Shown: positions 9,165 to 32,000 of the stretch, piece after piece
Numbering within the stretch: position 1 is the stretch's first letter
How the letters are laid out: each line of letters starts with the position of its first letter
Assembly (NCBI RefSeq): GCF_018336915.1
Contig: NZ_CP064923.1
Location: 1,140,001 to 1,172,000 of the forward strand
Length of the DNA stretch: 32,000 nucleotides
Source of the DNA: Acaryochloris marina S15
GTDB lineage: Bacteria; Cyanobacteriota; Cyanobacteriia; Thermosynechococcales; Thermosynechococcaceae
Direction: 5' to 3'
Position numbers and translations under genes: made by a program
The notes under the pieces: model-generated
The model's input: the letters and a program-made list of their open reading frames with translations, nothing else
Databases searched by the model: none
Told to the model about the DNA's origin: nothing

Positions 9165-10586
9165 TCAACGCTCTGAGGTTGTTGGCTGCTGGCTTTGGTG
9201 CTGTTGCAACCATAAGAAATCACTGATTTCATGCACCAGCCATTCTTTCTCTGGCAGGCTGAGCATTGTGCCAAATGTATGGCGTTGGCCTCCTTCAATT
9301 AGAGTACAGAGTTTATCAGAATTGGCAGTAGCGGCCGTTAACCTAACCCCATTTAAGGCTTTGGTGTTGCCCAGTGTTTGACCATAACGGAGACCCAGAC
9401 GGTCAATGTACCAGCAGATCTGAAACTGTTGAGGATTAATCTGTACGTGAATTCTTCCTGCTAACCCGAACAAGATTGCTGCCATCAGTAGGGTTCCACC
9501 TATGAGTAAAGGGAGTACGAACGCGAATATCATCTCAACAGGGATGGGGCCTTCAATCATTTTGAACATGCTGATAAGACCACTAGCCATGAGCGCAAAC
9601 AGAAACCCTTCAGCAAACAAGGCAAGCATTTCCATGCCGAGGACCTTGCCCCGCCAACCACTAGGAGGAATATCCACCGTGATCTGGGAGGGGATTCTCT
9701 GGATCTGAACTTTACTGCCTTTGGGCTGATGCCTTTTTCGTTGGGAGAACGATTGACGACGAACAGATCTGGGAGAGGACTGGGTTAAGGCTGCCAGCGC
9801 AGCCTGGGCTGAGGGTAAGCGATCTTCCACCGCAGGTTCGAGTAGACGATCTAACCAAGTGGCAAAATCTGGCTGAAGTTGAACGGCTTTGCGAAAATCG
9901 ATCTTCAATCGCTGTTGGGGCAAATCTGCAGGAGAACAGTGAGTCAACAGGAATAGTAGAGTTGCCCCCAAAGAATAGAGATCCGTGGCCGGGCCAGCTT
10001 TCCCCTGAAAATGTTCGGGTGCCATATAGCCATAGGTGCCTACAACGGTACTGCCTGCCATCGTAGTTTGATAGACATGTTGGACCGCTCCAAAGTCCAC
10101 CAGATAAATCTGGCCATCGTCACTGCGAATAATATTTTGGGGTTTAATATCTCGGTGAATAATCGGTGGGGTTAAGTCATGCAAATACTTCAAGATATTC
10201 AAAACCTTCACCCCTAACTGTCGGACTTCAGCTTCAGAAGCTCGCCAACCCTCCTGCACTAAGTCAGCTAGAGAGCGACCAGGTGCTAGTTCCTGGACAA
10301 TATAAAAACAGCGGTTCTGCTCCGTATCCGTTTGGAAGTAATCGATGTAATTCGGTATCCCTGGATAATCGAGCTGAGACAAGACTTGGGCTTCGCGTTC
10401 AAATAATTCCAATTGCTTCCAATGGGTCATGCCTTTCAAAGACAGTTGTTTCAAAGCACACTGCTGATGGCTATCAAGATCTTCAGCCCCATAAGTGACT
10501 CCAGACCCACCTTGCCCCAGAATCGAGACAATACGGTATCGGTCGGCAACTCGATCACCGATCTGAAGATAAAGCGGTTCGTTCAA
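9165..10586 (-). CDS. Ser/Thr protein kinase with C-terminal 2-TM + beta-rich module (array copy K1)
   Basis: Hanks motifs are all present: GQGGSGVTY, ALKQL, HRDIKPQN, DFG, GTYGYMAPE. Two hydrophobic helices lie at about aa 315-375. C-terminal conserved block INPQQF...LT...CTL...FGTMLS.PEKEWLV.EI.DFL. Confidence 0.92.
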   Translation of the reverse strand: MNEPLYLQIGDRVADRYRIVSILGQGGSGVTYGAEDLDSHQQCALKQLSLKGMTHWKQLELFEREAQVLSQLDYPGIPNYIDYFQTDTEQNRCFYIVQELAPGRSLADLVQEGWRASEAEVRQLGVKVLNILKYLHDLTPPIIHRDIKPQNIIRSDDGQIYLVDFGAVQHVYQTTMAGSTVVGTYGYMAPEHFQGKAGPATDLYSLGATLLFLLTHCSPADLPQQRLKIDFRKAVQLQPDFATWLDRLLEPAVEDRLPSAQAALAALTQSSPRSVRRQSFSQRKRHQPKGSKVQIQRIPSQITVDIPPSGWRGKVLGMEMLALFAEGFLFALMASGLISMFKMIEGPIPVEMIFAFVLPLLIGGTLLMAAILFGLAGRIHVQINPQQFQICWYIDRLGLRYGQTLGNTKALNGVRLTAATANSDKLCTLIEGGQRHTFGTMLSLPEKEWLVHEISDFLWLQQHQSQQPTTSER

Positions 10587-10691
10587 AGTTGATCTGTTTA
10601 CGAGGAAAGCTATACTCCATTCTGCCCTCTCCCAGACTCGTACCTTATGATCACGGACCTCTAGTTCAGACTGAAGTCAATGGCCACAACC

Positions 10692-10950
10692 TCACGGTTG
10701 TTGTGTTTTCAAAAAATCACCAATTTCCTGTATTAGCCACGCTTTTTCACTAGGGCGAAGCTTCGTGCCGGCACTGTTTTGTTAAGGAGTGATAGGGATA
10801 TCAAACCTAAATCTAGAAAGACTTCTAGAAGTTTTCGCTTAAAATAGCTAGAACACTCTACTGGCAAGGGGTTTCGCGGGTTTATCACTCCTTAAGAGAG
10901 CAGTGCCTCAAAAAATAGGCTGGTCATCTAAAACAAGCATCAATTCTTTT
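10692..10950 (-). pseudogene. Remnant of a fifth kinase paralog (C-terminal end only), interrupted by a MITE-like element
   Basis: The reverse strand of 10692-10769 translates to GTKLRPSEKAWLIQEIGDFLKTQQP*, compared with GTMLSPSEKGWLVEEIGDFLMSQQR* at the end of K4. The piece beyond the insert (10908 to about 10950: KELMLVLDDQPIF) is only weakly similar. No kinase domain remains. Confidence 0.75.
10770..10907. mobile_element. MITE-like non-autonomous element (~138 bp) with ~25-bp terminal inverted repeats
   Basis: The left end GGCACTGTTTTGTTAAGGAGTGATA (10770-10794) matches the reverse complement of the right end, GGCACTGCTCTCTTAAGGAGTGATA (10883-10907), at 22 of 25 positions by hand. No ORF. 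It sits inside the kinase remnant. The target-site duplication could not be resolved. Confidence 0.65.
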
Positions 10951-10959
10951 GAAGCCCAC

Positions 10960-12342
10960 TCATCGCTGCTGAGATCTTAGAAAGTCACCAACCTCTTCGA
11001 CTAACCATGCTTGTTCCCGAGGACTAAGCCACGCCCCAAAGTGATAGTGAGAATCTTTAGTCATGAGAGTGCAGATTTTAACGGGAAGACCACTACTTGC
11101 ATAGGTGGTTGTCAACTTAATTCCTGATAAATCTACAGTTTGCCCACCTTGGCCATAGCGGCACCCTGGTAAATTAACCTGCCGGAATAACCGAAAATAC
11201 TCAGGATTAATCTCCAAGTATGTGTGTCCAACAATATAAAACAAAGCCGCTATTAACAGCCCAATCCCAATTCCCCCAACAAAAAAGATAGTGAACCCAA
11301 ACATCAGTGGGGATAAGCCGGCTCTAAAAACATTTAAAAGGACAACAAAAATCATTGCATTGACAAAGACCGTAAAACAGCCTGTGAGCACAGTGTCACT
11401 TCGCCAACCAATAGGCGGTATATGAACGAAAAGGCCTGTCTTCGTCTTCTGTAATTTAACCTTGCTATCATCTGGTTGATGATGGATGGTTAGAGATTCA
11501 GGTCCATTAAGAGTGAGTTGCTGTATGGCACTTGGCTGTCTTAGCACTGCAATCGCATCCTGAGCTGTAACAAACCGATCCTCTACCGCAGGCTCCAACA
11601 TGTGATCCAGCCAATCGGCAAAATCTGGATCGAGTTGTACGACTGAGCGAAAATCAATTTTGAGCCGTTTTTGAGGTACATCAGCAGGAGAGCAATGGGT
11701 TAAGAGAAAGATTAATGTCGCTCCCAAGGAGTAGAGATCAGTTGCAGGTACCGCTTTCCCCCGAAAATGTTCAGGGGCCATATAACCATAAGTACCGACA
11801 ATGGTGCTGCCCATCATCGTATGGTGATAAACAGTTTGCACAGCACCAAAATCGACCAAATAAATCTGACCTTTGTCGCTCCGAACAAGATTTTGAGGCT
11901 TAATATCCCGATGAATAATGGCAGGCGTTAGTTCATGCAGGTACGTCAAGATCTCCAGCACTTGCAACCCTATCTGTTGCACTTCAGATTGGTTTACTCG
12001 CCAACCTTGATTGACTAATGCAGCTAAAGATTTACCAGGGGCTAGTTCTTGGACAATATAGAACCATCGATCTTCCTCCGTATCCATTTGAAAGTAGTCA
12101 ATGTACCGAGGAATGGCTGGATGATCGAGCTGCGACAAAACCTGTGCTTCTCTGTCAAATAGTTCAAGCTGTTTCCAACCCCGTATTCCTTTAAGAGACA
12201 ATGCTTTAAGGGCATACTGCTGATGAGTATGAACATCTTCAACTGCGAAGGTTATACCACTGCTCCCCTGCCCCAAAACAGATTGCGTACGATACCGTCC
12301 AGCAATGAGGTCACCAATCTGGTGTAAGGGTTGCCTAAGCAT
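10960..12342 (-). CDS. Ser/Thr protein kinase with C-terminal 2-TM + beta-rich module (array copy K2)
   Basis: Same motifs as K1 (GQGSSGITF, ALKAL, HRDIKPQN, DFG, YMAPE). The start is placed at ATG 12340-12342 (MLRQPLHQIGDLIAGRY) because all four copies then have 9 residues before the conserved GD. The ORF-track start at 12414 reads through the conserved spacer. Confidence 0.9.
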   Translation of the reverse strand: MLRQPLHQIGDLIAGRYRTQSVLGQGSSGITFAVEDVHTHQQYALKALSLKGIRGWKQLELFDREAQVLSQLDHPAIPRYIDYFQMDTEEDRWFYIVQELAPGKSLAALVNQGWRVNQSEVQQIGLQVLEILTYLHELTPAIIHRDIKPQNLVRSDKGQIYLVDFGAVQTVYHHTMMGSTIVGTYGYMAPEHFRGKAVPATDLYSLGATLIFLLTHCSPADVPQKRLKIDFRSVVQLDPDFADWLDHMLEPAVEDRFVTAQDAIAVLRQPSAIQQLTLNGPESLTIHHQPDDSKVKLQKTKTGLFVHIPPIGWRSDTVLTGCFTVFVNAMIFVVLLNVFRAGLSPLMFGFTIFFVGGIGIGLLIAALFYIVGHTYLEINPEYFRLFRQVNLPGCRYGQGGQTVDLSGIKLTTTYASSGLPVKICTLMTKDSHYHFGAWLSPREQAWLVEEVGDFLRSQQR

Positions 12343-12446
12343 GGAGTGAATGGTTAAAAACGCAATATTCCTATTGTGTCTTGACCTGAGCAATGGGGCT
12401 GTGATCGAAGGCAATCAACTGTTTAAGCGTAGCCTCCTCATGCTTG
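12343..12446 (-). repeat. Conserved inter-kinase spacer, copy 1 (K3-K2)
   Basis: Shares a ~37-nt near-identical core (ttaaaaacgcaataTtCctattgtgtcttgacct) and a looser flank with 13803-13897. On the mRNA strand it forms a weak AT-rich hairpin followed by UUUUU just before the start codon. Confidence 0.7.
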
Positions 12447-13802
12447 TTAGGGCCTCAAAAAATGACCTATTGTCTCGACTAACCAGGCTTGTTCATGGGG
12501 ACTTAGATGTGTGCCAAAACTATATTGATGGTCTGTTGTGAAAAGAGTGCAGTATTTGACTTTACTCTTAGGAGATGTTGTTAACTTAATCCCGATCAAA
12601 TCTAAAGTACGCCCTTTACGAGAACATTGTAGGCCGGGTAAATGAACCCGCCAGGACAAACGAAAATGATGAGGATCTATTTTGAGATGAGTATGCCCCG
12701 CAATAGCGAAGAAAACGGAATTGAACATCCCAATGCCAATCATCCCCCCGAGACCCGCAGCAACCCCAAAGATCAATGGGGGCATGGCAGCTTTAAAAGC
12801 TAATAAAAACACAATCAGGATGCAGACATTGACCCAAAGCTGAAGACACTCTTGTTTCAAAGTTTCCCAGTGCCAGCCAACGGGGGGAATATGAACGGTC
12901 AGCGAAGCCTCCGTCTGATGCAATTTAATGTTGCTACCCATGGGCTGGGCTGGTACTACACCACTCACAAGCGAGCGTTTTGTTGTCATGCTGGGGTGTA
13001 TTAGGGTTGCGATCGCAACCTGTGCTGAACCAAACCGATCCTCTACCGCAGGCTCCAGCATGTGATCCAGCCAATCGGCAAACCCAGGGTCAAGCCTGAC
13101 GACTGAGCGAAAATCAATTTTCAGACGTTTTCGGGGTAAATCAGCAGGAGAACAATGGGTGAGTAGAGATAGCAGTGTTGCTCCCAGAGAATAGAGGTCG
13201 GTTGCAGGAACCGCCTTTCCTTGGAAATGCTCAGGAGCCATATACCCATAGGTACCCACCACTGTACTGCCCATCATCGTATTGTGATAGACATTTTGGA
13301 CCGCCCCAAAATCGACTAAAAAGACCTGGCCCTCATCGTTACGAATGATATTTTGGGGTTTAATATCTCGATGAATAATCGGTGGCGTTAGCTCATGCAG
13401 ATATTTCAGAATGTCTAGAATCTGCAAAGCCAACTGACGGACTTCGGCTTGGCTGGCCTGCCATCCGTCTTTCATCAAATCTGTGAGGGATTTACCGGGG
13501 GCTAATTCCTGAACAATATAGAACCATCGATCTTCTGCAGTGTCTGTTTGGAAGTAGTCGATGTAATGGGGAATCGCTGGATGATCCAGCCGGGATAAAA
13601 CCTGTGCTTCGCGCTCAAACAGCTCTAACTGTTTCCAATCCTGAATTCCCTTGAGGGATAAAGCTTTGAGAGCATACTGCTGATGAGTATCAACATCTTC
13701 CACAGCGAAGGTTATGCCAGTGCTACCCTGCCCCAACACGGATTGCACGCGATACCGTTCAGCAATGAGATCGCCAATTGGGTGTGAAGTCTGCAAAAGC
13801 AT
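12447..13802 (-). CDS. Ser/Thr protein kinase with C-terminal 2-TM + beta-rich module (array copy K3)
   Basis: 451-aa ORF with all Hanks motifs intact (ALKAL, HRDIKPQN, DFG, YMAPE). C-terminal block IDPHHF...LT...CTLF...FGTHLSPHEQAWLVETIGHFL. Confidence 0.92.
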   Translation of the reverse strand: MLLQTSHPIGDLIAERYRVQSVLGQGSTGITFAVEDVDTHQQYALKALSLKGIQDWKQLELFEREAQVLSRLDHPAIPHYIDYFQTDTAEDRWFYIVQELAPGKSLTDLMKDGWQASQAEVRQLALQILDILKYLHELTPPIIHRDIKPQNIIRNDEGQVFLVDFGAVQNVYHNTMMGSTVVGTYGYMAPEHFQGKAVPATDLYSLGATLLSLLTHCSPADLPRKRLKIDFRSVVRLDPGFADWLDHMLEPAVEDRFGSAQVAIATLIHPSMTTKRSLVSGVVPAQPMGSNIKLHQTEASLTVHIPPVGWHWETLKQECLQLWVNVCILIVFLLAFKAAMPPLIFGVAAGLGGMIGIGMFNSVFFAIAGHTHLKIDPHHFRLSWRVHLPGLQCSRKGRTLDLIGIKLTTSPKSKVKYCTLFTTDHQYSFGTHLSPHEQAWLVETIGHFLRP

Positions 13803-13897
13803 GAGGCGCTAAATTAAAAACGCAATACTTCTATTGTGTCTTGACCTCAACAATAGATTGGTGATCTAGAGCAATCAGCCGTTCTTCCTCCAGCCCT
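13803..13897 (-). repeat. Conserved inter-kinase spacer, copy 2 (K4-K3)
   Basis: Homologous to 12343-12446 (core ttaaaaacgcaataCtTctattgtgtcttgacct). This shows that the duplicated unit was gene plus spacer. Confidence 0.7.
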
Positions 13898-15280
13898 TCA
13901 ACGTTGCTGAGACATCAAAAAGTCACCGATTTCCTCGACTAGCCACCCTTTTTCACTAGGGCTGAGCATAGTCCCAAATTTGTGGGTGTTAACACCTTCT
14001 AATAAGGTGCAGCCTTTCACAGGGCGATCATTACTGGTATAGGCAACCGTTAGCTTAATCCCTTCAATATCTTCAGTACGGCCACTACGACGGTATCGAA
14101 ATCCCAAAGACTTTACTTGCCAGATTAATTCAAAGGTTTGAGGATTAATCTCCAAATGGGTGCGTCCTGCCATGCCAAAGATAGTCGCTCCTGCCATACC
14201 GAGACCGACAATCCAAAACGGAATAGAAAATAAGGGGAATATAAAAGGAGCGCCAGCCGCAATTGCTCCTGCAGTCCACACAAAAATAAACCCGTTCCAA
14301 AATACTGCAAAACACCCAATCCCAGCCGTTTCTCCTCGCAATCCGATGGGGGGAATATCAACTTTTAGGTCAGTCTTGGTGCGTTTTAAGGTTACTTTAC
14401 TGCCCATCGGTTGCCGACGCAGGTCTTTGGCGCTGGGTTGAGCTATCGCTGAGGGGGGCGAACGGCGGGGAGGAGCTGTAAGCATATCAATCGCATCCTG
14501 AGCGGAAGCTAACCGATCTTCCACGGCAGGTTCCAGCATTTGATCGAGCCAATCGGCAAAGTCCGGTTTGAGCTGGACAGCAGAGCGAAAGTCAATCTTC
14601 AGCCGTTTTTGAGGCAAATCTGCAGGGGAGCTGTGGGTAAGCAAAAATAGCAATGTTGCTCCAAGGGAATATAAGTCCGTAGCAGGAACCGCTTTTCCTC
14701 GGAAATGTTCGGGAGCCATATAGCCATAGGTACCGACGACAGTACTACCCACCATCGTATTTTGATAAACATTTTGGACTGCTCCAAAATCCACCAGGTA
14801 AATCTGACCGTCTTCGCTACGGATAATATTTTGCGGCTTAATATCTCGATGAATAATCGGTGGCGTTAGCTCATGCAAGTATTTCAAAATATCTAGAATT
14901 TGCAAGGCGAACTGGCGAACTTCAGTTTGGCTTGCTCGCCATCCCTCTTTCACTAGGTCTGCTAAGGACTGACCCGGCGCTAGTTCCTGAACAATATAGA
15001 ACCACCGATTTTCTTCGGTATCAGTTTGGAAATAGTCGATGTAGTTGGGGATGGCTGGATGATCCAGTTGGGATAAAACTTTGGCTTCTCGCTCAAACAG
15101 TTCGAGCTGCTTCCAATCTCCCATTCCCTTTAGGGATAGTTCTTTGAGGGCAAATTCTTGGTGAGAATAGATGTCTTCTGCGGCATAAGTAATGCCAGCC
15201 CCTCCCTTGCCGAGCACGGAAAGGAGACGGTATCGTTCCGCGATTAAATCTCCGGCCTGGCGATGGGAATGCTCAAACAT
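13898..15280 (-). CDS. Ser/Thr protein kinase with C-terminal 2-TM + beta-rich module (array copy K4, first gene of the array)
   Basis: Motifs GKGGAGITY, ALKEL, HRDIKPQN, DFG, YMAPE. The start is placed at ATG 15278-15280 (MFEHSHRQAGDLIAERY) by alignment with K1-K3. The ORF-track extension to 15370 translates a perfect palindrome. Confidence 0.9.
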   Translation of the reverse strand: MFEHSHRQAGDLIAERYRLLSVLGKGGAGITYAAEDIYSHQEFALKELSLKGMGDWKQLELFEREAKVLSQLDHPAIPNYIDYFQTDTEENRWFYIVQELAPGQSLADLVKEGWRASQTEVRQFALQILDILKYLHELTPPIIHRDIKPQNIIRSEDGQIYLVDFGAVQNVYQNTMVGSTVVGTYGYMAPEHFRGKAVPATDLYSLGATLLFLLTHSSPADLPQKRLKIDFRSAVQLKPDFADWLDQMLEPAVEDRLASAQDAIDMLTAPPRRSPPSAIAQPSAKDLRRQPMGSKVTLKRTKTDLKVDIPPIGLRGETAGIGCFAVFWNGFIFVWTAGAIAAGAPFIFPLFSIPFWIVGLGMAGATIFGMAGRTHLEINPQTFELIWQVKSLGFRYRRSGRTEDIEGIKLTVAYTSNDRPVKGCTLLEGVNTHKFGTMLSPSEKGWLVEEIGDFLMSQQR

Positions 15281-15335
15281 AACGTTGTTAGCTGACATAA
15301 CATCAGGTTGCCCGCATAGGTGCTCTCTCTTGCAG

Positions 15336-15372
15336 AGATGGAGCTTCAACATGATGAATTGAAGCTCCATCT
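15336..15372. promoter_or_regulatory. Perfect 14-bp inverted repeat upstream of the kinase array
   Basis: agatggagcttcaa (15336-15349) / ttgaagctccatct (15359-15372) with a 9-nt loop. It begins 56 nt upstream of the proposed K4 start, in the K4/pheT divergent region. Its function is unknown (operator or 5'-UTR hairpin). Confidence 0.4.
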
Positions 15373-23865: not shown

Positions 23866-24229
23866 TAGCTGTTTTACACCTTCCAGAATTATTGGTCCAT
23901 TTTTCAAAATTTATATCGAATAATTCTTGAGTTTCCAGTAAGGGAAGGTCTCGATTCTCTTGCAAGCTTTTTCTGTGAATGTGAATACAAAACACTATTT
24001 TAAGAGTAGGTGAGTTACGTTCTTTATCAGGAACCAGAGCTATCAAGATGAGAAGTATAACGCTAACTCTATGGCATTTTTGACTAACAGATACAGTTTC
24101 TGAATGACTTAACCTCCCTCAACCGAGTTAAACTTATTCGAAGTGGAAAAGGCAAATCAAAATGTCGATTTATGCCACAATTTGGGACGCCATCGTTATG
24201 CGACGATGCAAGCTAGGATTCAGAATAAA

Positions 24230-25351
24230 ATGACAAAACGTTTTCGCATCGCACTTTCATTTGCAGGAGAAAAAAGGGATTTTGTTGTCCGAATGGCGCA
24301 TGTCCTTGCAGATCGCTTTAGCGCAGACCAAATTCTTTATGATAAGTTTCACGAAGGAGAATTTGCCTGTAGTAATCTCGCCTTTCATCTTCCCTCGCTT
24401 TACCAGAATGAAGCCGATCTGGTCGTTGCTATCCTGTGCAATAACTACAGCGAAAAAGAGTGGTGTGGCCTTGAGTGGAACGCTATATATAGTCTGATCA
24501 AACAGGGTAATGTAAAACAAGTCATGCTTTTACGCTTTGACAGGGTCGAACCTGCAGAATTGTTCGGTCTTGCTGGTTTTGTTGATCTGGATGATAAGAC
24601 ACCAGAAGAAACAGCTGCACTTATTCTCAGTCGCCTTGCGATTAATAAAGGGCAAAAGAAGGATTACTATCTTTCGACAAACTCTATAGATCTTGATTGG
24701 CCTGATGTCACCCCTGTGCTTGACTGGCCTGTGGCAAATCATCGTGAAGCGAAGCTTGCTTTTGCAAAGCTAATTACGCATAGAGCACCATTCAGAATAC
24801 TTCCCATCTACGGTCCGACAGAAATAGGCAAGACTCACTTAACAAAGCAGTTTCTCCGACATGCATTTAAAATTCCGGGATTAACTTGCGGACGCCTAGA
24901 CTTCAAAGGCTCTACAGACATAGACACAGAACTGCGGATTTTTGCACAGAACCTCAAGGTTGAGACCCCATCTGGTAGTGTTGTCAGTCAACTTTCTCAA
25001 ATCTTTACTTCCCTCCAAAAGATAGCGCGTCCCACTCTCCTTATTTTCGACACGTTTGAGATGGCTGGAGAAGCAGAGAACTGGATGCAACAAAGTCTAC
25101 TCCTCTCCATCATTCGCGAAACTTGGCTACGTGTTATCGTAGTTGGCCAACAACCATTGAAAGTGCATGGAGAACCCTGGGATGGAGCAAGTGCCTCACC
25201 CATAAAGCTTAGCGTACCTAATCCAGAAGAATGGTTTGAGTTCGGCCAGACTTACAAGCCGAACCTCACGCTTGAGTTTGTTCGCCAAGCTCATGATTAC
25301 GCTGGCGGCAAGAGTGCGATACTTGCCCAACTGATAGGGCCTTCGGAGTAA
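24230..25351 (+). CDS. TIR-domain protein fused to a STAND-like P-loop NTPase domain
   Basis: N-terminal bacterial TIR pattern FRIALSFAGEKRDFV...ILYDKF...LVVAILCNNYSEKEWCGLEW, with the putative catalytic Glu codon at 24473-24475. Walker A GPTEIGKT (24812-24835). Walker B LLIFDTFE. STAND-like IKLSVPNPEEWFEF. The longest ORF starts at GTG 24143; ATG 24230 sits just before the TIR core. Confidence 0.85.
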   Translation: MTKRFRIALSFAGEKRDFVVRMAHVLADRFSADQILYDKFHEGEFACSNLAFHLPSLYQNEADLVVAILCNNYSEKEWCGLEWNAIYSLIKQGNVKQVMLLRFDRVEPAELFGLAGFVDLDDKTPEETAALILSRLAINKGQKKDYYLSTNSIDLDWPDVTPVLDWPVANHREAKLAFAKLITHRAPFRILPIYGPTEIGKTHLTKQFLRHAFKIPGLTCGRLDFKGSTDIDTELRIFAQNLKVETPSGSVVSQLSQIFTSLQKIARPTLLIFDTFEMAGEAENWMQQSLLLSIIRETWLRVIVVGQQPLKVHGEPWDGASASPIKLSVPNPEEWFEFGQTYKPNLTLEFVRQAHDYAGGKSAILAQLIGPSE

Positions 25352-25356
25352 CCCCC

Positions 25357-26958
25357 ATGAACTTCACTGAACAACTCCGTATTCTCAAAAATGCACAAGG
25401 TGACCCAGCAGCTCTCGTTCTTGCTAGTGTCGATATCGCCTATTTCACACTTACTGAGCCACAGCGTCAATCAATTAAACAGGCATTAATCGCTGCTGCT
25501 ATCCCGCACTGGTGTGATTCCGACCTGCTTGTGGCTCTGCTGGACACAACACCTGATAAGGGAGACATCTTATTCGATTATTTGCGCAAACTCACAGTTA
25601 TTGAACCCTTTCCTGCACGTGGAGAGAAAGCCATGAACGTTCACGAGTCTGCTCGCCTGACCTTGCGGGATTATTTGCGGAAGACAGACCCCGCTCGCTG
25701 GGTTCAACTTTCCACAAATGCCTGGAACTACTTAAACGAACACACTGAGACTCATGCTCGGATCGAAGCACTCTACCACTTGTTTGCGACCGATCAAATA
25801 GCTGCTGCAGCCGAATGCGAACTGCTAACTCAGGAAATCACACATTCTATGCAGCCTGAGAATACTACTGCACTCTCCCTTGCTCTGGAGGAACTAGCTA
25901 ATGCCAGCTGGCTCAAAGGAGCAGCCCGAGTGGAAGCACTACTAGCCACTTTTGAAGTTCGTAGTTTGCGCGGAGACACTGCCCAACTGGAGGATCAAGC
26001 GCTTCAAGTTATGAATCTTGCTCATGCAACATCCCGTCAATCAGGAATTTCCCGGGCACAGTGCCTTCTAGGAGACATCTACCAAACAAAAGGACGACTG
26101 GATGATGCGCTCAAAGCATTCAATGAATACCTCTCTATCTGTCAGAATCTGACTTCAGCCGATCCGTCTAACGCAAAATGGCAGCGTGATCTCGGCGTCG
26201 CGTATGCGAGGACCGGAGACATCTACCAAACAAAAGGACGACTAGATGATGCGCTCAAGGCATTCAATGAATACCTTTCTATCTGTCAGAATCTGATTTC
26301 AGCCGATCCGTCTAACGCAGTATGGCGGCGTGATCTCGGCGTCGCGTATGCGAGGACCGGAGACATTTACCAAACAAAAGGACGACTAGATGATGCGCTC
26401 AAGGCATTCAATGAATACCTTTCTATCTGTCAGAATCTGATTTCAGCCGATCCATCTAACGTAAAATGGCAACGTGATCTCGGCTTCGCGTATGTGAGAA
26501 CTGGAGACATCTACCAAACAACAGGACGATTGGATGATGCGCTCAAGGCATTCAATGAATATCTCTCTATCTTTCAGAATCTGACTTCAGCCGATCCGTC
26601 TAACGCAAAATGGCAGCGTGATCTCGGCGTCGCGTATTCGAGGACCGGAGACATCTACCAAACAATAGGACGACTGGATGATGCGCTCAAGGCATTCAAT
26701 GAATACCTTTCTATCTTTCAGAACCTGACTTCAGCCGATCCGTCTAACGCAGTATGGCAGCGTGAACTCGGCGTCGCGTATTCGAGGATCGGAGACATCT
26801 ACCAAACCCAAGGACGACTGGATGATGCACTCAAGGCATTCAATGAAGACCTCTCTATCTTTCAGAACCTGACTTCAGCCGATCCGTCTAACGCAGCATG
26901 GCAGCGTGAACTCGCTGTCGCGCATGCGAGGATCGGAGGCATCTATAAGGCCCTCTAA
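25357..26958 (+). CDS. Helical + TPR-repeat protein (sensor-arm half of the split STAND module)
   Basis: Starts 5 nt after the stop of the TIR-NTPase gene, with GGAG 9 nt upstream of the ATG. The N-terminal ~235 aa are helical. Six-plus 48-aa repeats follow (GDIYQTKGRLDDALKAFNEYLSICQNLTSADPSNAKWQRDLGVAYART), of the DPSN..WQRDL type common in bacterial NB-ARC/TPR proteins. Confidence 0.85.
   Translation: MNFTEQLRILKNAQGDPAALVLASVDIAYFTLTEPQRQSIKQALIAAAIPHWCDSDLLVALLDTTPDKGDILFDYLRKLTVIEPFPARGEKAMNVHESARLTLRDYLRKTDPARWVQLSTNAWNYLNEHTETHARIEALYHLFATDQIAAAAECELLTQEITHSMQPENTTALSLALEELANASWLKGAARVEALLATFEVRSLRGDTAQLEDQALQVMNLAHATSRQSGISRAQCLLGDIYQTKGRLDDALKAFNEYLSICQNLTSADPSNAKWQRDLGVAYARTGDIYQTKGRLDDALKAFNEYLSICQNLISADPSNAVWRRDLGVAYARTGDIYQTKGRLDDALKAFNEYLSICQNLISADPSNVKWQRDLGFAYVRTGDIYQTTGRLDDALKAFNEYLSIFQNLTSADPSNAKWQRDLGVAYSRTGDIYQTIGRLDDALKAFNEYLSIFQNLTSADPSNAVWQRELGVAYSRIGDIYQTQGRLDDALKAFNEDLSIFQNLTSADPSNAAWQRELAVAHARIGGIYKAL
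26071..26958 (+). repeat. Tandem 144-bp coding repeats (6 full units plus a partial one)
   Basis: Units start at 26071, 26215, 26359, 26503, 26647, 26791 and 26935. Units 1 and 2 differ at 7 of 144 nt by hand count. Confidence 0.9.
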
Positions 26959-27285: not shown

Positions 27286-28769
27286 CAATGTCACTGACTT
27301 AAGAAAGCAGAAAAGGGCTGCAAGTCTTGATAGATATAGAATCAAGACTTGCAATCCATCAATAATCTGCCTTCTACTATGTCTGAGTCAGCCGAAATTC
27401 TCAAGCATCAGTTTTCCCAAAGCCTGGGATTGCCCTGGACGGATATTCTTCCCGCTTCAAGGCTGACCGACATCCTAGCAGAGGAATCAATCTCCTATCG
27501 CAACCGTGTGTATACGCCCATCGTTACGTTGTGGGCCATGCTCTACCAAGCATTATCTGCAGACAAAAGCTTGCGCAACACAGTCAAATGCATCACCACC
27601 TGGCTCACTGCCGCAGGACTCCAACCCCCATCATCAGATACAGGAGCCTACAGTAAAGCCCGAGGAAGATTACCTGAGTCCCTGCTGCAACGGTTAATTC
27701 CCGAAACTGCTAATCACATAGAGCAAAGCATTCCCCAAGAACACCACTGGTGTAATCGAACAGTGAAAGTCTATGACGGCACGACAGTGCTGATGGCTGA
27801 TAGTGTGGCGAACCAAGGGGAGTATCCTCAACATGGCAATCAGGCTCCTGGCTGTGGATTCCCCATTGCCCGTTTAGTGGTGTTTTTTTGCTTAATCACA
27901 GGGGCAGTGGTCTCAGCCTGCATTGCCCCCTGGAGCATGAGTGAAATCGTCATCAGTCGGCTGCTTTATGAGGATCTGGAGGTTGATGATGTGGCCATAG
28001 CAGATCAAGCCTATGGCAGCTATGTTGATCTAGCCCTGATTCAACAACAAGGAGCCGATGGGGTTTTACGTAAACATCATGCCCGTCATACAGACTTCCG
28101 TAAAGGACGTAAGAACGGGATAGGAGACCACCAAGTTCAATGGCAAAAGCCCACACGGTGTCCCGCCCACATGAGTGCAACGGAGTTTGCAGAGATTCCC
28201 AAAACGTTGACAGTCAGGGAGGTATCGCTACGTCTATCGCGTCGAGGCTTTCGAGACCAGTTCATTATCGTCGTCACAACCTTACTGGATGCTCAGCGCT
28301 ATAGTGCTAAACAATTGACTCGCTTGTACGGATGGCGATGGCAGGCGGCTGAAGTCAATTTGAGACACCTCAAAACCACCTTAAAGATGGAAATGCTCAC
28401 AGCAAAGACACCTGAAATGGTGCGCAAGGATATTTGGTCTCATTTGCTAGGCTACAACTTATTGAGAAGTCTCATGGAACAGGCTGCCCCATGGGCAGAA
28501 TATGACCGCTCTCGACTCTCTTTACAAGGGGCTCGACAACACTTTAATCAGATGCTGGTTTTGTTAGCAACGGCCACACAAGCTATACGTCAACGGTTGT
28601 ATGCTCATCTGCTTGAAAATATTGCTACTGACCTTCTGCCTGTTCGACCCCATCGGCTCGAACCCAGGGTCGTTAAACGAAGACCTAAGCCCTTCCCCAG
28701 AATGCGACAACCGCGCTCTGTCCTCAAAGCCAATCTGGCTGCTTGATTAAGCTTATCTCAGTGCCATTG
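27286..28769 (+). mobile_element. IS4-family insertion sequence (1484 bp)
   Basis: Imperfect 18-bp terminal inverted repeats: CAATGTCACTGACTTAAG at 27286, and CAATGGCACTGAGATAAG as the reverse complement of the right end. A single DDE transposase ORF. A 12-bp direct duplication, which is within the size range known for IS4-type elements. Confidence 0.88.
27349..28746 (+). CDS. IS4-family DDE transposase
   Basis: 465-aa ORF filling the element. The N-terminal region (YRNRVYTPIVTLWAMLYQALS) and the DDE-type core resemble IS4-family transposases. A more likely ATG is at 27379. An 11-bp hairpin at 27321-27351 overlaps the TTG start. Confidence 0.85.
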   Translation: MQSINNLPSTMSESAEILKHQFSQSLGLPWTDILPASRLTDILAEESISYRNRVYTPIVTLWAMLYQALSADKSLRNTVKCITTWLTAAGLQPPSSDTGAYSKARGRLPESLLQRLIPETANHIEQSIPQEHHWCNRTVKVYDGTTVLMADSVANQGEYPQHGNQAPGCGFPIARLVVFFCLITGAVVSACIAPWSMSEIVISRLLYEDLEVDDVAIADQAYGSYVDLALIQQQGADGVLRKHHARHTDFRKGRKNGIGDHQVQWQKPTRCPAHMSATEFAEIPKTLTVREVSLRLSRRGFRDQFIIVVTTLLDAQRYSAKQLTRLYGWRWQAAEVNLRHLKTTLKMEMLTAKTPEMVRKDIWSHLLGYNLLRSLMEQAAPWAEYDRSRLSLQGARQHFNQMLVLLATATQAIRQRLYAHLLENIATDLLPVRPHRLEPRVVKRRPKPFPRMRQPRSVLKANLAA

Positions 28770-28781
28770 TACTCAGGGGTT
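28770..28781. repeat. Target-site duplication, right copy (tactcaggggtt)
   Basis: Identical to 27274-27285. Confidence 0.85.
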
Positions 28782-29582
28782 TGCTCCACAATCATGATCT
28801 CTTTCACCGTTGCGATCGCCCGGTCTGAAAAAGGCAGTTCATTGCGATACAAACGCTGAAGGAATTGAATCTGTTCCTTGGGTGAGATCCGTAAATCCCC
28901 TGTTAGCCAAAAGGTATCAATGTCATCGGCTTCTCCAATTAATTGGTTGCCATAGCCCACCGTGGTTACCCACTGCTGCATCTGCTGAAAGCCAATGCGA
29001 CGAGCTAACACCTGATAGAACCAGACCCCCGACACTTTAAAAGCCGTTTGCAGATTGAGGTCCCGATTCCAGGTGGGGATACTGCGTTCCACCCCATCCC
29101 AGGTCAAAATCGCCAGCTCATTGGCAATCACCCCTGTCTCTAACGCAATCAGAGAGTTGAGGATTTTAAAGGTAGACGCAGGCAAAAACGGCTGAGTATT
29201 GCGAGTCGAATTGTGCTGATAGGTTCGATTTCGTTTGAGGTCGTAAATCAGAATCGAGCCATTGACCTTTAGATCTTGAAAGGGTTGGGCCAGGGAAACA
29301 TTCTGCTGAACCAATTTAGGGGTGGCTGCTGCCGATGGCTCACCCAGGGGGATGGCGGTTAAATATAGACTTGCGATCGCATATCCAAAACATCGGGCAA
29401 CACAGTACCCTAGATTTTTATCGACATGATTAACCATATTCTCGATGACCTTCATTCAAACGGTTGTGGGGCTCGATCGGGGGGTGTTTATCGAGGTCGA
29501 TGCCTTGACCACCTTTTTAGGTTGCTCATCACTCAGTAAACAAGAGTTAGACTACTGCAGGAACTATTGCTACATACTAGGT

Positions 29583-29760: not shown

Positions 29761-30435
29761 ATGCTTCTTCTGCAATTCCTTAAAAACTCAATCTCTATGG
29801 TAGAAAGACGAGAATATTGCTGCCGTTCTCCACTGACTTTTCTTTTGGGTGTGGGATTCAGCCTGTTGCTATCGCTAGCGTTCCTGGCTCCGAGTCAGGC
29901 CATTCATTGGGCTGATATCCCTAATCCACGTCAAGACAATAATTGGGTTATGGATAAAGGGGACATCCTCAGCCTTGAGAGTGAAGCTAAGCTCAATCAG
30001 ATGATCTCGGCCTTGGAAGCCAAGAACGGGATCGAGATGGTAGTGGTGACTGTGCCGGAGGTACATCCTTTGGGGGCCACCGAAGAGTTGGCTCAGGCGC
30101 TTTTCACCACTTGGAAATTGGGTAAGAGAGGGCAAAATAACGGCGTTATGTTATTGGCCTCTAAAAAGGAAGGTCGTGTAGCCATAGAAAAGGGATCTGG
30201 TTTACGGTCTGACCTGACTTATGAACAGGTAGATAACATTATTCAGACTCAGATCACTCCTCAGTTAGAGCGAGATAATTTTGATGCCGGTGTTGTCAAT
30301 GGTGCTCAGGCCATGATCCAAATTCTTGAGAATAAAAGCGAAGACTCGATTTCTTTTTTCCAGATCGTGCTGCTGATGTTAGGGGCTGTAATTTGGGCCT
30401 ATATCGCTAAAACCCTATGGAAAGTCTTTAGGTAA
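29761..30435 (+). CDS. TPM-domain protein (YgcG/Psb32-like) with C-terminal TM anchor
   Basis: Signal/anchor, then IPNPRQDNNWVMD...LNQMISALEAKNGIEMVVVTV...NNGVMLLASKKEGRVAIEKGSGL, which is typical of TPM (PF04536). C-terminal TM. An alternative start is at 29797. Confidence 0.85.
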   Translation: MLLLQFLKNSISMVERREYCCRSPLTFLLGVGFSLLLSLAFLAPSQAIHWADIPNPRQDNNWVMDKGDILSLESEAKLNQMISALEAKNGIEMVVVTVPEVHPLGATEELAQALFTTWKLGKRGQNNGVMLLASKKEGRVAIEKGSGLRSDLTYEQVDNIIQTQITPQLERDNFDAGVVNGAQAMIQILENKSEDSISFFQIVLLMLGAVIWAYIAKTLWKVFR

Positions 30436-30644
30436 TCCCTTGAATAGCCACCTTGATACAAAAATTCTGTCCAGTTGTATTGGAAGTTGGGGCGGTGCGA
30501 ACAACGGAAGGTTTTGAAGAGAGGCTAGAGATGTTGGGTAAGGGTGAGTAGATGTTCAGAATGACGGGGCTCGTTTGGGGAGTGATAGGAATATCCAGAC
30601 ATAACTGTTTAAAGGTCTGATCAAGACTCTATTTTGAGAGAAAT

Positions 30645-32000
30645 ATGCTGCTCAATCGTATAAAACGTCGTAGACATCAACTGCTGATATCCCTTTTTAC
30701 TCTGGTATGCGGCCTGCTACTATTTTTATCCTCACTGGCCCCAAGTCGGGCCATTCCCGTATCTGAAGTCCCTAATCCTCGCCAGAACAATAATTGGGTG
30801 ACGGATATGGCCGATTTGCTTAGTCCTGACAGCGAGACCAAGCTAAATCAGATGATTACGGCATTGGAAGAGACCAATGGTGCTGAAATTGCAGTGGTGA
30901 CGGTTCCCGATACTAAACCTTCCGCATCCCCCAAAGCGTTTGCGACAGAGCTATTTAACACTTGGGGGATTGGGGAAAAAGGCGTAGACAACGGTATCTT
31001 ATTTCTGGTCTCGAAGTATGAACGTCGTACAGAAATCGAGACAGGGTAAGGCCTAGAATCCATTCTTCCTGATGCGAAGGTGGGCAATATTCTCCGTACC
31101 CAGGTCACCCCTCACTTTAAGCAAGGCAATTTTGATGCAGGTATCGTTAATGGAACTCAGGCGATTATCCAGGTTCTAGAAGGTGGAACGATTGCATCTC
31201 AAGCGCCCTTGCCAGAAGAGAGCTTGCAACCATCAACATCGCTAACAAAGAGAGGGAAACCAGTATTTTGGTTAGGCTATTTGGCTGTTATTACAGTTGT
31301 GGTCGTTACTGTGATGGGGATATTGAAATATGTGAATCAAAGAAAGACGCAAGTCTATCGGATTTCTCCTAGGGGGCGTACCACTTTGGCCTCTCATATA
31401 TGGGTGTCTCTCTGGATTAAAAATCTTCGGAAATTATCCTTAGACGACTGTAGACAACGCCCCATCCAGCATGGTGTTGCCCTGAATTCAATCACGGTAT
31501 TTAAAACTTGGTGGGCTTGCTATGGCGTATCAGCTGGACTGCTGCTAATGGCTGATTCCATGGATTTCGAAGTAGTTTGGTGGCTCATCTTCGCACTCTT
31601 TATAATGTATGAGCTGTGGTGCTGTTTTAGGCGTGATGTAAGCAGCACAAAAGCTAGCTATGACTTATTCATGTTGAATGTGTTTATTTTCCTATTTATA
31701 GGTGGGGGCTTCTTTTTTATAGGCTTAATCAATCCTTCTATTCCTAGAGTTCTTATGCTACCGTTCCTAAGCTTTTTCCCCTGTGTACTCCGGGGCATGA
31801 GATTGCTGCCTCCAAGTGGCACGGTGTTCATCAATGCGTGGCTTTTGATGATGATAGGTGGGATTCTCTTTATTTATCCTTTTCTTTCTATCTTGCTGAT
31901 ACTGCCGTTTCTATATGCTTGTGCGGGTGCACTACGGTCAATGAGATTGTTATCCCAAAAGAAGACGATATGCCAGTGTCAGTCTTGTGGTGATGCGATG
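30645..32000 (+). pseudogene. TPM-domain paralog with an in-frame TAA (31047-31049) and a long polytopic C-terminal extension; continues past the window
   Basis: 30645-31046 encodes ...VPNPRQNNNWVTD...AEIAVVTVPD...NGILFLVSKYERRTEIETG, then TAA. The same frame continues GLESILPDAKVGNILRTQVTPHFKQGNFDAGIVNG..., which is the rest of the TPM fold, and stays open for 317 codons to position 32000. I checked this codon by codon. Confidence 0.75.

Follow-up and report, generated by a model that had tools for sequence, protein, structure and literature searches.

Is the gene pair of Acaryochloris marina S15 that joins a TIR domain to a tetratricopeptide-repeat (TPR) array a genuine two-component system or a single gene that was recently broken, and where in the protein architecture does the cut fall? 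The pair lies on the forward strand of a 32,000-nucleotide stretch of the genome (NZ_CP064923.1, positions 1,140,001 to 1,172,000; hereafter the window, numbered from its first letter). Gene 1 encodes a TIR domain fused to a P-loop NTPase, and gene 2 encodes a helical region followed by the TPR array. An earlier interpretation of the letters of the window, here called the sequence-only reading, had assigned the effector and the switch to the first polypeptide and the sensor to the second. The occurrence of such a TIR-NTPase and TPR gene pair is confirmed as far above chance, given the 296 homologues of gene 1 and the recurrence of the pair in many phyla. In the structural models, the cut lies inside the nucleotide switch, between its lid and its winged helix, and not between the switch and the sensor. 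We consider it moderately probable that the two proteins are the halves of one NLR/STAND-type immune receptor, an obligate two-chain receptor that would deplete NAD+ when activated.

Position of the cut

The list of open reading frames (ORFs) contains two forward-strand frames at the locus, 24143–25351 (402 amino acids from a GTG codon) and 25357–26958 (533 amino acids). The TAA stop codon of gene 1 (25349–25351) is separated by 5 nucleotides (nt) from the ATG of gene 2 at 25357, which is in a different frame and has a GGAG of its own. These features had been described by the sequence-only reading and can all be read in the sequence, as can the motifs that it quoted, ALSFAGEKRDFV, EKEWCGLEW, GPTEIGKT, LLIFDTFE, LSVPNPEEWFEF, and DPSN..WQRDL. 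The position that it gave for the beginning of gene 1, 24143, needs to be moved. The homologue search for gene 1 yielded 296 matches (E-values down to 6e-209 among the matches listed). The homologues, in the 120 matches listed of the 296, are almost all ~370–390 amino acids long with ~93% coverage of the 402-residue ORF, and they start with M[ST]KRFR in the alignment. Because of these lengths and beginnings, the true start of gene 1 is most likely the ATG at 24230 (373 amino acids), 87 nt downstream of the GTG.

For gene 1, the Pfam family TIR_2 matched with 38.6–38.8 bits against a cut-off of 28, and it was found in 32 of the 32 aligned family members at E <= 0.01. In the 32-sequence alignment of gene 1 (A1), E82, W78, and W83 are invariant, and E82 is presumably the catalytic Glu of TIR NADases, as judged by motif position (the S/x-W-C-x-x-E pattern). 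The Walker B residues L270, L271, F273, D274, F276, and E277 are also invariant in A1, as are R301 and the residues L327, P330, and W335 of an L..P....W motif at 327–335. In the AlphaFold2 (AF2) model of gene 1, which has a mean predicted local distance difference test score (pLDDT) of 85.6, a flavodoxin-like TIR domain (residues 5–139) is followed by a linker, a five-stranded P-loop domain (residues 172–306), and three helices (residues 332–369). A Foldseek search of the PDB with this model returned the plant TIR-NLR RPP1 as the best match (7dfv_B, E = 2.8e-8) and Avs3 as the fourth (8dgc_B), and further matches included the wheat resistosome, NRC2, and many AAA+ proteins. In addition, hhalign aligned the NTPase profile of gene 1 with residues 7–133 of E. 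coli MalT at 79% probability, covering Walker A, Walker B, and the helix before the P-loop, which is typical of STAND proteins. These results agree with the sequence-only reading in that a TIR domain is fused to a STAND-like P-loop NTPase and that a Glu of the catalytic type, assigned by its place in the motif, is retained. Gene 1 is a TIR domain, a nucleotide-binding domain, and a helical lid, and it ends there. Sequence searches of the PDB were of no use for gene 1: its profile gave E > 0.6 at best, and apparent matches to RecA were rejected, since they stem from weak P-loop hits that recur along fusion chains with several RecA copies.

For gene 2, the AF2 model of the N-terminal 240 residues (mean pLDDT 92.9; predicted TM-score, pTM, 0.88) places in order two helices, a winged helix (helices 34–47, 55–62, and 66–77; strands 82–84 and 93–95), and a helical arm. 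An alignment of 23 gene 2 sequences (A3) shows no variation at E83, F85, A87, R88, V95, H96, and E97, and the invariant elements of the N-terminus include EPFPARG, NVHE, R100, R104, and H141. The first 230 residues are as conserved as the NTPase of gene 1. From its position in the model, His96 is proposed to be the counterpart of the MHD-motif His that contacts ADP in STAND/NLR proteins. In Foldseek searches with the gene 2 N-terminus, the longest high-probability matches were the STAND-TPR protein PH0952 (6mfv; E = 0.03, TM-score 0.47), Apaf-1 (1z6t, 5juy, and 3shf), and MalT (8bob), and MarR-type winged helices were also among the matches. The TPR part of gene 2 was recognized by the Pfam families TPR_12 (121 bits) and TPR_MalT (51.8 bits against a cut-off of 45), and a PDB search with the gene 2 profile yielded TPR proteins only. 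The earlier description of gene 2 as a helical region followed by a TPR array is thus borne out by Pfam and AF2, with the addition that the helical region includes a predicted winged helix.

Because gene 1 holds the nucleotide-binding pocket and the lid, and gene 2 holds the predicted winged helix, the switch itself is divided in the models. A partition into effector plus switch and sensor, as first proposed, does not describe the pair: gene 1 carries only the nucleotide-binding domain and the lid of the switch, and gene 2 brings the predicted winged helix, the invariant His, and the TPRs. The canonical STAND lid consists of four helices, and the lid of gene 1 has three in the AF2 model; the fourth may be contributed by the helix with which gene 2 begins.

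Conservation of the split

The NTPase profile of gene 1 was searched against 1.84 billion representative proteins (clusters at 50% identity), which gave 789 relatives, 105 of them below 1e-30. Among the matches listed that reach the end of the profile, 111 of 114 representatives terminate at most 14 residues from the end of the lid and the profile (median, 1), irrespective of the length of their N-terminus. Fifty-eight of 66 metagenome loci were informative, with the end of gene 1 complete and 130 nt or more of sequence beyond it, and in all 58 a homologue of the gene 2 N-terminus starts at most 60 nt from the gene 1 stop codon. The single polypeptide that is characteristic of STAND proteins is therefore not the form found here, the stop after the lid being kept in 111/114 representatives and 58/58 loci. 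The frame of gene 2 relative to gene 1 was 0 in 13, +1 in 30, and +2 in 15 of the 58 loci, and because all three relative frames occur, one ancestral frameshift cannot explain the split.

In genomes, the NTPase is rare (10 loci in the genomes of 185,579 species), and the distribution of the pair is patchy across phyla. The gene 2 partner is present in 8 of the 10 genome loci, which belong to Acaryochloris, Burkholderiales, Nitrospirales, the alphaproteobacterium Vineibacter, Verrucomicrobia (L010, L011, and L012), and Planctomycetes. The remaining two are an NTPase-only remnant without an obvious partner in Polyangiales (L013) and a short fragment (L015). Among the loci analysed, the start of gene 2 ranges from a few nt past the gene 1 stop codon to a short overlap with gene 1. 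The orthologues in A. marina MBIC11017 are also split, with identities to the window of 83% for gene 1 and ~87% for the gene 2 N-terminus.

A query that spans the junction retrieved 76 proteins, none of which covers both halves. Fused single-ORF homologues do exist, in the form of three in-frame natural fusions with short linkers (P0186, P0235, and P0277); they are rare, and the split is conserved in nearly all members. At the fusion junction, a gene 1-like ..LLEALTAGP leads through the linker into a gene 2-like ..LQAAQGDP..IPHW..EPFPAR..NVHE. These fusions argue that the two halves are one unit and that the mechanism would tolerate a covalent link, and hence that the system could work without dissociation of its subunits. 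Furthermore, the pairwise identities of the NTPase half and of the gene 2 N-terminal half are correlated (r = 0.86; 45 pairs from 10 loci), and the two diverge at an equal rate.

The sequence-only reading had left the choice between a genuine two-component variant and a recently broken single gene; in the second case, the locus would be a pseudogene that arose by frameshift from a TIR-STAND-TPR protein encoded as one chain. Taken alone, the change of frame and the gap of 5 nt would fit a small indel, and rare fused relatives exist. However, both ORFs are intact with all motifs invariant, and the stop and restart recurs in 58/58 metagenome loci and in 8 genome loci from six phyla, down to ~33% identity, with none of the 76 junction matches spanning the junction. 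The pseudogene is refuted by the conserved split, the use of all three frames, and the common endpoint in 111/114 representatives, and we give it practically no weight. The pair of A. marina MBIC11017 is split as well, and the two-component alternative is the one that stands, on the evidence of the 58/58 metagenome and 8/10 genome loci.

The head of gene 1 and the tail of gene 2 are both exchanged within the family. The heads found on the same truncated NTPase are TIR_2, SEFIR (PADLOC bSEFIR, 89.5 bits), DUF4062, SIR2, a Ser/Thr kinase, EAD1, and EAD8. The SIR2 head is close to the Thoeris NADase ThsA (PADLOC ThsA, 293 bits), and DUF4062 has been reported as a TIR-like NADase (bioRxiv 10.64898/2026.05.01.722283). 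The EAD8-headed gene has an EAD8-trypsin gene upstream, which is the arrangement of the "EAD principle" of Kaur et al. 2020 (PMC7159879). Another gene follows closely on each of the SIR2-, kinase-, and EAD8-headed genes, and the partner of the SIR2-headed member is 40% identical to gene 2 over 240 residues. The tails of gene 2 are TPR arrays of 383 to >1100 residues, or TIR. Interchangeable heads of NAD+-degrading or immune type fit a putative role in conflict or defence. Across 79 loci, the only recurrent genes are gene 1, gene 2, and an accessory gene for a 157-residue protein in ~10 loci.

Mechanism, alternatives, and known systems

The mechanism that we propose builds on the observed domain content, on the position and conservation of the cut, on the linkage of the two genes in an operon, and on the occurrence of rare natural fusions and of exchanged heads. 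The two genes would be read from the same mRNA, and, as the genomic data suggest, their products would form an obligate heterodimer that rebuilds a complete nucleotide-binding oligomerization module. In the resting state, the winged helix of gene 2, with His96, would clamp ADP on the P-loop of gene 1. A foreign ligand, most plausibly a phage protein, would bind to the TPR array, and this binding would make the winged helix turn, together with the sensor, at the junction between lid and winged helix. ADP would then be exchanged for ATP, and the heterodimers would oligomerize. The TIR heads, brought together, would become active and deplete NAD+, and the infected cell would be stopped (abortive infection). 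The nucleotide cycle, the ligand, and the oligomerization steps would follow what is established for Apaf-1, plant TIR-NB-ARC-LRR (TNL) resistosomes, and Avs proteins, and we infer that the pair has NADase activity and an anti-phage function. Because the cut is conserved across many bacterial phyla, the pair is probably an undescribed two-chain variant of the bacterial anti-phage NLRs. A more far-reaching proposal, which we put forward tentatively, is that of a natural two-chain NLR whose switch is assembled in trans from an effector plus nucleotide-binding cassette and a winged helix plus sensor cassette, each exchangeable independently, and which would represent a widespread unnamed immune family.

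None of the curated STAND profiles (NB-ARC, NACHT, AAA_16, and nSTAND1–6) exceeded its cut-off for the gene 1 NTPase; the scores were 17.6–17.8 bits for AAA_16 (cut-off, 32.6), 12.6–13.1 bits for NACHT (cut-off, 26.7), and 12.6–12.7 bits for nSTAND6, and the P-loop part also had sub-threshold matches to AAA_22 and ATPase_2. In the 32 gene 1 relatives, AAA_16 matched at E <= 0.01 in 20, nSTAND6 in 4, and NACHT in 2, and the best listed AAA_16 scores remained under the cut-off. Several results weigh against the proposed two-chain receptor. For gene 2, the structural matches of the N-terminus are weak (E = 0.03–0.3, TM-scores 0.39–0.47, none below E = 0.001), hhalign against MalT aligned only TPR-like helices, and Pfam finds no family in residues 1–230 or in three orthologues. 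The correlation of identities between the halves reflects co-inheritance and is no proof of contact. PADLOC (2023) gave no match better than E = 0.005 for gene 1 and only generic TPR for gene 2, so that neither protein is recognized by its models, and no family member could be linked to a tested defence system. Furthermore, the neighbours of the pair, in the window as in A. marina, are housekeeping genes and do not form a defence island, and the NTPase was not found in plasmids, phages, or IMG/VR viral contigs.

The main rival is a dissociative guard, in which gene 2 is an antitoxin-like inhibitor, and a ligand or the phage-driven loss of gene 2 frees gene 1, which has no winged helix of its own, to oligomerize by itself and burn NAD+. 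Such a guard would account for a cut that removes exactly the domain keeping STAND proteins closed, for a tight translational coupling that would match the inhibitor level, and for the plasticity of the partner, which includes gene 2 variants without the conserved His and with TIR for the TPRs. The natural fusions make it less likely, since P0235 and P0277 have intact motifs and show that the halves can stay covalently joined. In addition, the halves are equally conserved, as for one folded module and unlike a toxin with a fast-evolving antidote, and the winged helix contributes to the ring interface in known STAND oligomers. We therefore regard the guard as rather unlikely. Alternatively, with the same sensing of a ligand, the TIR domain might act by making a signalling nucleotide, as Thoeris and plant TNLs do, and thereby switch on an effector encoded elsewhere instead of killing through NAD+ depletion. 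Many TIRs of bacteria and plants produce signalling nucleotides, and the EAD1 and EAD8 adaptor heads of some relatives recruit a separate effector. However, across the 79 loci the operon has no conserved receptor gene, ThsA-like or other, and the TIR slot swaps with terminal effectors (the ThsA-type SIR2 NADase and DUF4062), which makes a signalling TIR clearly unlikely.

A non-immune switch with a housekeeping role, for example in stress-related or developmental cell death of cyanobacteria and unrelated to phages, would suit the housekeeping context, which is syntenic between two Acaryochloris genomes, and the MalT-like similarity of the NTPase, a family that includes regulators. Against this stand the lack of a DNA-binding or other output domain besides TIR, the swapping of heads among NADases, a kinase, and protease adaptors, the patchy occurrence across phyla, the difference in repeat copy number between strains, and the defence-type neighbours at other loci. 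We consider a regulatory STAND protein of this kind very unlikely.

For the preferred two-chain receptor, the closest parallels include the Avs/AVAST, bNACHT, and bacterial TIR-NLR proteins, which share with the pair an N-terminal effector, a P-loop STAND switch, and a C-terminal TPR-like sensor. The Avs-type systems also resemble its family in their swappable effector heads and patchy distribution. In contrast to the pair, whose switch appears to be cut between lid and winged helix into two coupled genes in nearly every member, these proteins are single polypeptides. None of the Avs, NLR, and bNACHT models of PADLOC matches the pair, and the Walker B of gene 1 reads D-T-F-E-M, with one acidic residue, and does not carry the NACHT clade signature D-[GAS]-h-D-E (bioRxiv 10.1101/2022.07.19.500537). 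Thoeris combines the TIR protein ThsB with a ThsA gene, and no ThsA-like gene was found in the operon or among the recurrent neighbours; the ThsA-type SIR2 was seen only as an alternative head on a gene 1-type NTPase.

The plant TNLs (RPP1 and ROQ1) include the top structural match of gene 1, RPP1, and the gene 2 stretch ...L..L.VIEPF....(9)..NVHE.ARL appears to resemble the plant ARC2/MHD region by position. No sequence homology between the plant TNLs and the pair is detectable beyond the level of the fold, and the sensor is LRR in the former and TPR in the latter. In plants, full TNLs are also found paired with truncated TIR-NBS (TN) proteins (PMC4305288, PMC8069298), which consist, like gene 1, of a TIR domain and a nucleotide-binding part without a sensor. 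Whereas the partners of TN proteins are complete NLRs, the partner of gene 1 would supply the missing half of gene 1's own switch. As for MalT and PH0952, the gene 1 NTPase aligns with MalT and the gene 2 N-terminus best matches PH0952, a remote similarity; MalT, unlike the pair, activates transcription as a single chain, binds DNA through a LuxR domain, and lacks a TIR. In work attributed to Moffett et al. (2002) and Rairdan and Moffett (2006), both cited in PMC4342346, separately expressed fragments of the NLR Rx reportedly reassemble into a working ligand-dependent receptor. The split Rx constructs are laboratory cuts at CC/NB-ARC-LRR or CC-NB-ARC/LRR, whereas the cut of the pair is natural, conserved, and inside the nucleotide-binding module.

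The EAD-coupled NTPase conflict systems of multicellular bacteria (PMC7159879, PMC8195603) are related through the EAD1 and EAD8 heads of some members of the pair's family, and the two share cyanobacterial hosts, TPR sensors, and TIR, SIR2, and kinase effectors. The Pfam nSTAND families derived from these papers match gene 1 weakly, as seen for nSTAND6, and text searches of Kaur et al. 2020 (PMC7159879) and Kaur et al. 2021 (PMC8195603) revealed no split STAND like the pair. A split between lid and winged helix is likewise not described in the bNACHT preprint, in the available part of a 2026 survey of 589 STAND clades, or in broader full-text searches, an absence that is no proof. Literature searches for the A. 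marina accessions WP_012164613, ABW29287, and B0CDT5 returned nothing. In Lee et al. 2026, the sensor analysis of that STAND survey omitted proteins with <400 residues after the NTPase, and on this account the family would have escaped sensor-centred surveys such as this one.

NLR/STAND receptors of animals, plants, fungi, and bacteria are thought to be activated by rotation between the lid and the winged helix in one polypeptide. A family that is cut at or beside this hinge, and is kept cut across phyla, would be a ready-made system for the hinge step, and, if the two-chain reading is true, would give direct experimental access to that step of NLR activation. The split would allow the clamping of the nucleotide by the MHD-like His, auto-inhibition, and oligomerization to be tested directly for each half. 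It may also explain the shuffling of effector and sensor cassettes, and the pair is a candidate defence system beyond the present models of PADLOC.

Features, variants, and surroundings

The coordinates of the two genes and their features are collected in Table 1. A scan for promoters and terminators performed no better than on shuffled sequence, with no signal between gene 1 and gene 2, and an NCBIfam search gave no meaningful name.

Table 1. The gene pair and its features, in window coordinates
Feature	Position	Strand	Evidence
Gene 1: TIR, P-loop NTPase, helical lid; 373 residues	24230–25351	+	ORF list, homologue starts, AF2, Foldseek
TIR domain, gene 1 residues 7–127	24248–24610	+	Pfam TIR_2
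Glu82 codon in WCGLEW	24473–24475	+	Position of the catalytic Glu of TIR NADases
Walker A GPTEIGKT, residues 195–202	24812–24835	+	G195, G200, and K201 invariant (32 sequences); hhalign onto the MalT P-loop
Walker B LLIFDTFE, residues 270–277	25037–25060	+	Invariance; hhalign onto the MalT Walker B strand
Helical lid (HD1-like), three helices, residues 332–369	25223–25336	+	AF2; PEEW motif, C-terminal G.KS..LAQL.GP
GGAG, ribosome-binding site of gene 2	25345–25348	+	Within the 3' end of gene 1; 8 nt upstream of the ATG; sequence reading
Gene 2: winged helix, helical arm, TPR array; 533 residues	25357–26958	+	ORF list, Pfam TPR matches
Predicted winged helix, gene 2 residues 34–96	25456–25644	+	AF2: three helices, two-strand wing; ends in invariant NVHE
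His96 codon (NVHE)	25642–25644	+	Invariant in A3; immediately follows wing strand 2 of the AF2 model
Helical arm, residues 97–238	25645–26070	+	AF2 helices; 40–88% identity across phyla; no Pfam family
TPR-like array, 6.1 units of 144 bp (48 residues), presumed sensor	26071–26945	+	Tandem Repeats Finder: period 144, 92% matches, score 1428

The units of the TPR array were extracted and compared. Gene 2 of the window has 6 near-identical units, which make up its last 300 residues, and that of A. marina MBIC11017 has 11 (L002, 7128–9452). Position 15 of the unit is K in every unit of the window and Q in A. marina MBIC11017, and because this difference is uniform in each genome, the units are homogenized within each genome (concerted evolution). 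The differences between units concentrate at unit positions 7, 24, 28, and 35–48, a pattern reminiscent of fungal NLRs, whose internal repeats are likewise highly conserved. The C-terminus of gene 2, GGIYKAL*, resembles the end of the A. marina orthologue, VAIYEALQ*; therefore, the insertion sequence (IS) located downstream did not truncate gene 2.

Several relatives depart from the common form. In the gene 2 variants P0314, P0318, and P0186, a C-terminal TIR takes the place of the TPR array and the His of NVHE is lost (SVQGD, NVRE, and VQRD). The 1376-residue protein P0177, from a metagenome contig, has the order ParA-like domain, long TPR array, TIR, and the same truncated NTPase. It is followed by a resolvase gene and not by a gene 2 partner, and TIR_2 genes flank it; P0177 may be a rearranged form in which the sensor has moved to the front. 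In P0141 (304 residues, on a 2.4-kb contig), a TIR head is joined straight to the gene 2 N-terminus and the entire NTPase is missing, which could reflect a deletion variant or an assembly artefact. In the gene 1 copies of L026 and L027, apparently one and the same sequence, the reading frame is interrupted shortly ahead of the P-loop by a stop codon (..LLPI*GVSETGKSH..), which could mark a pseudogene or a sequencing error.

The accessory gene for a ~157-residue protein (MKRRDFLEQWGLSSLKI...), which has no Pfam match, lies just upstream of gene 1 in ~10 metagenome loci of the "KFLVAFSFAGEQRD" TIR subclade (L057 at 1140–1610, L082, L046, L043, L051, L038, L036, L044, L040, and L081) and is absent from the window; several of its copies look frameshifted or partial. 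In L019 (7314–7733) and L020 (9541–9957), two diverged loci from one sample, a small gene with a SET domain (lysine methyltransferase-like) is located 17–44 nt upstream of gene 1; its product may serve a subclade as an accessory component.

The gene order around the pair is shared with A. marina MBIC11017 and comprises pheT, a GGDEF gene, a methyltransferase gene, a hypothetical gene, a glyoxalase gene, a gene for a 202-residue membrane protein, the pair, and a transpeptidase-like gene. The mobile-element-rich island of the sequence-only reading was dropped because of this shared order: the neighbours are housekeeping genes, and the sole mobile element near the pair is one IS4-type DDE transposase ORF (Pfam DDE_Tnp_1; 27349–28746), located downstream between gene 2 and the transpeptidase-like gene. 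The remaining genes of the window are those of ordinary metabolism and four kinases. At other loci, the pair of Chthoniobacteraceae adjoins a gene for a HEC-01A/AbiLi/AriA-like ATPase, and the neighbours in L018 are HigB, an ATPase of the AAA_15/21 type, a further TIR protein, and an integrase. There are also loci besides that of the window where housekeeping genes surround the pair.

No inverted repeats were found around the IS of the window. The transposase ORF abuts and overlaps the 3' end of the class-D beta-lactamase/transpeptidase-like gene (28724–29455), whose product has 243 residues in the window and 280 in A. marina MBIC11017, and therefore the IS probably truncated that gene. In a second A. 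marina genome (L001), the transpeptidase-like gene is split by an IS630-type element. On the minus strand of the window (9165–15370), four consecutive paralogous Ser/Thr kinase genes encode proteins of 451–490 residues, in each of which a Pkinase domain at the N-terminus is followed by a C-terminal half that is uncharacterised. Two adjacent genes for TPM_phosphatase-domain proteins are located at 29761–31049.

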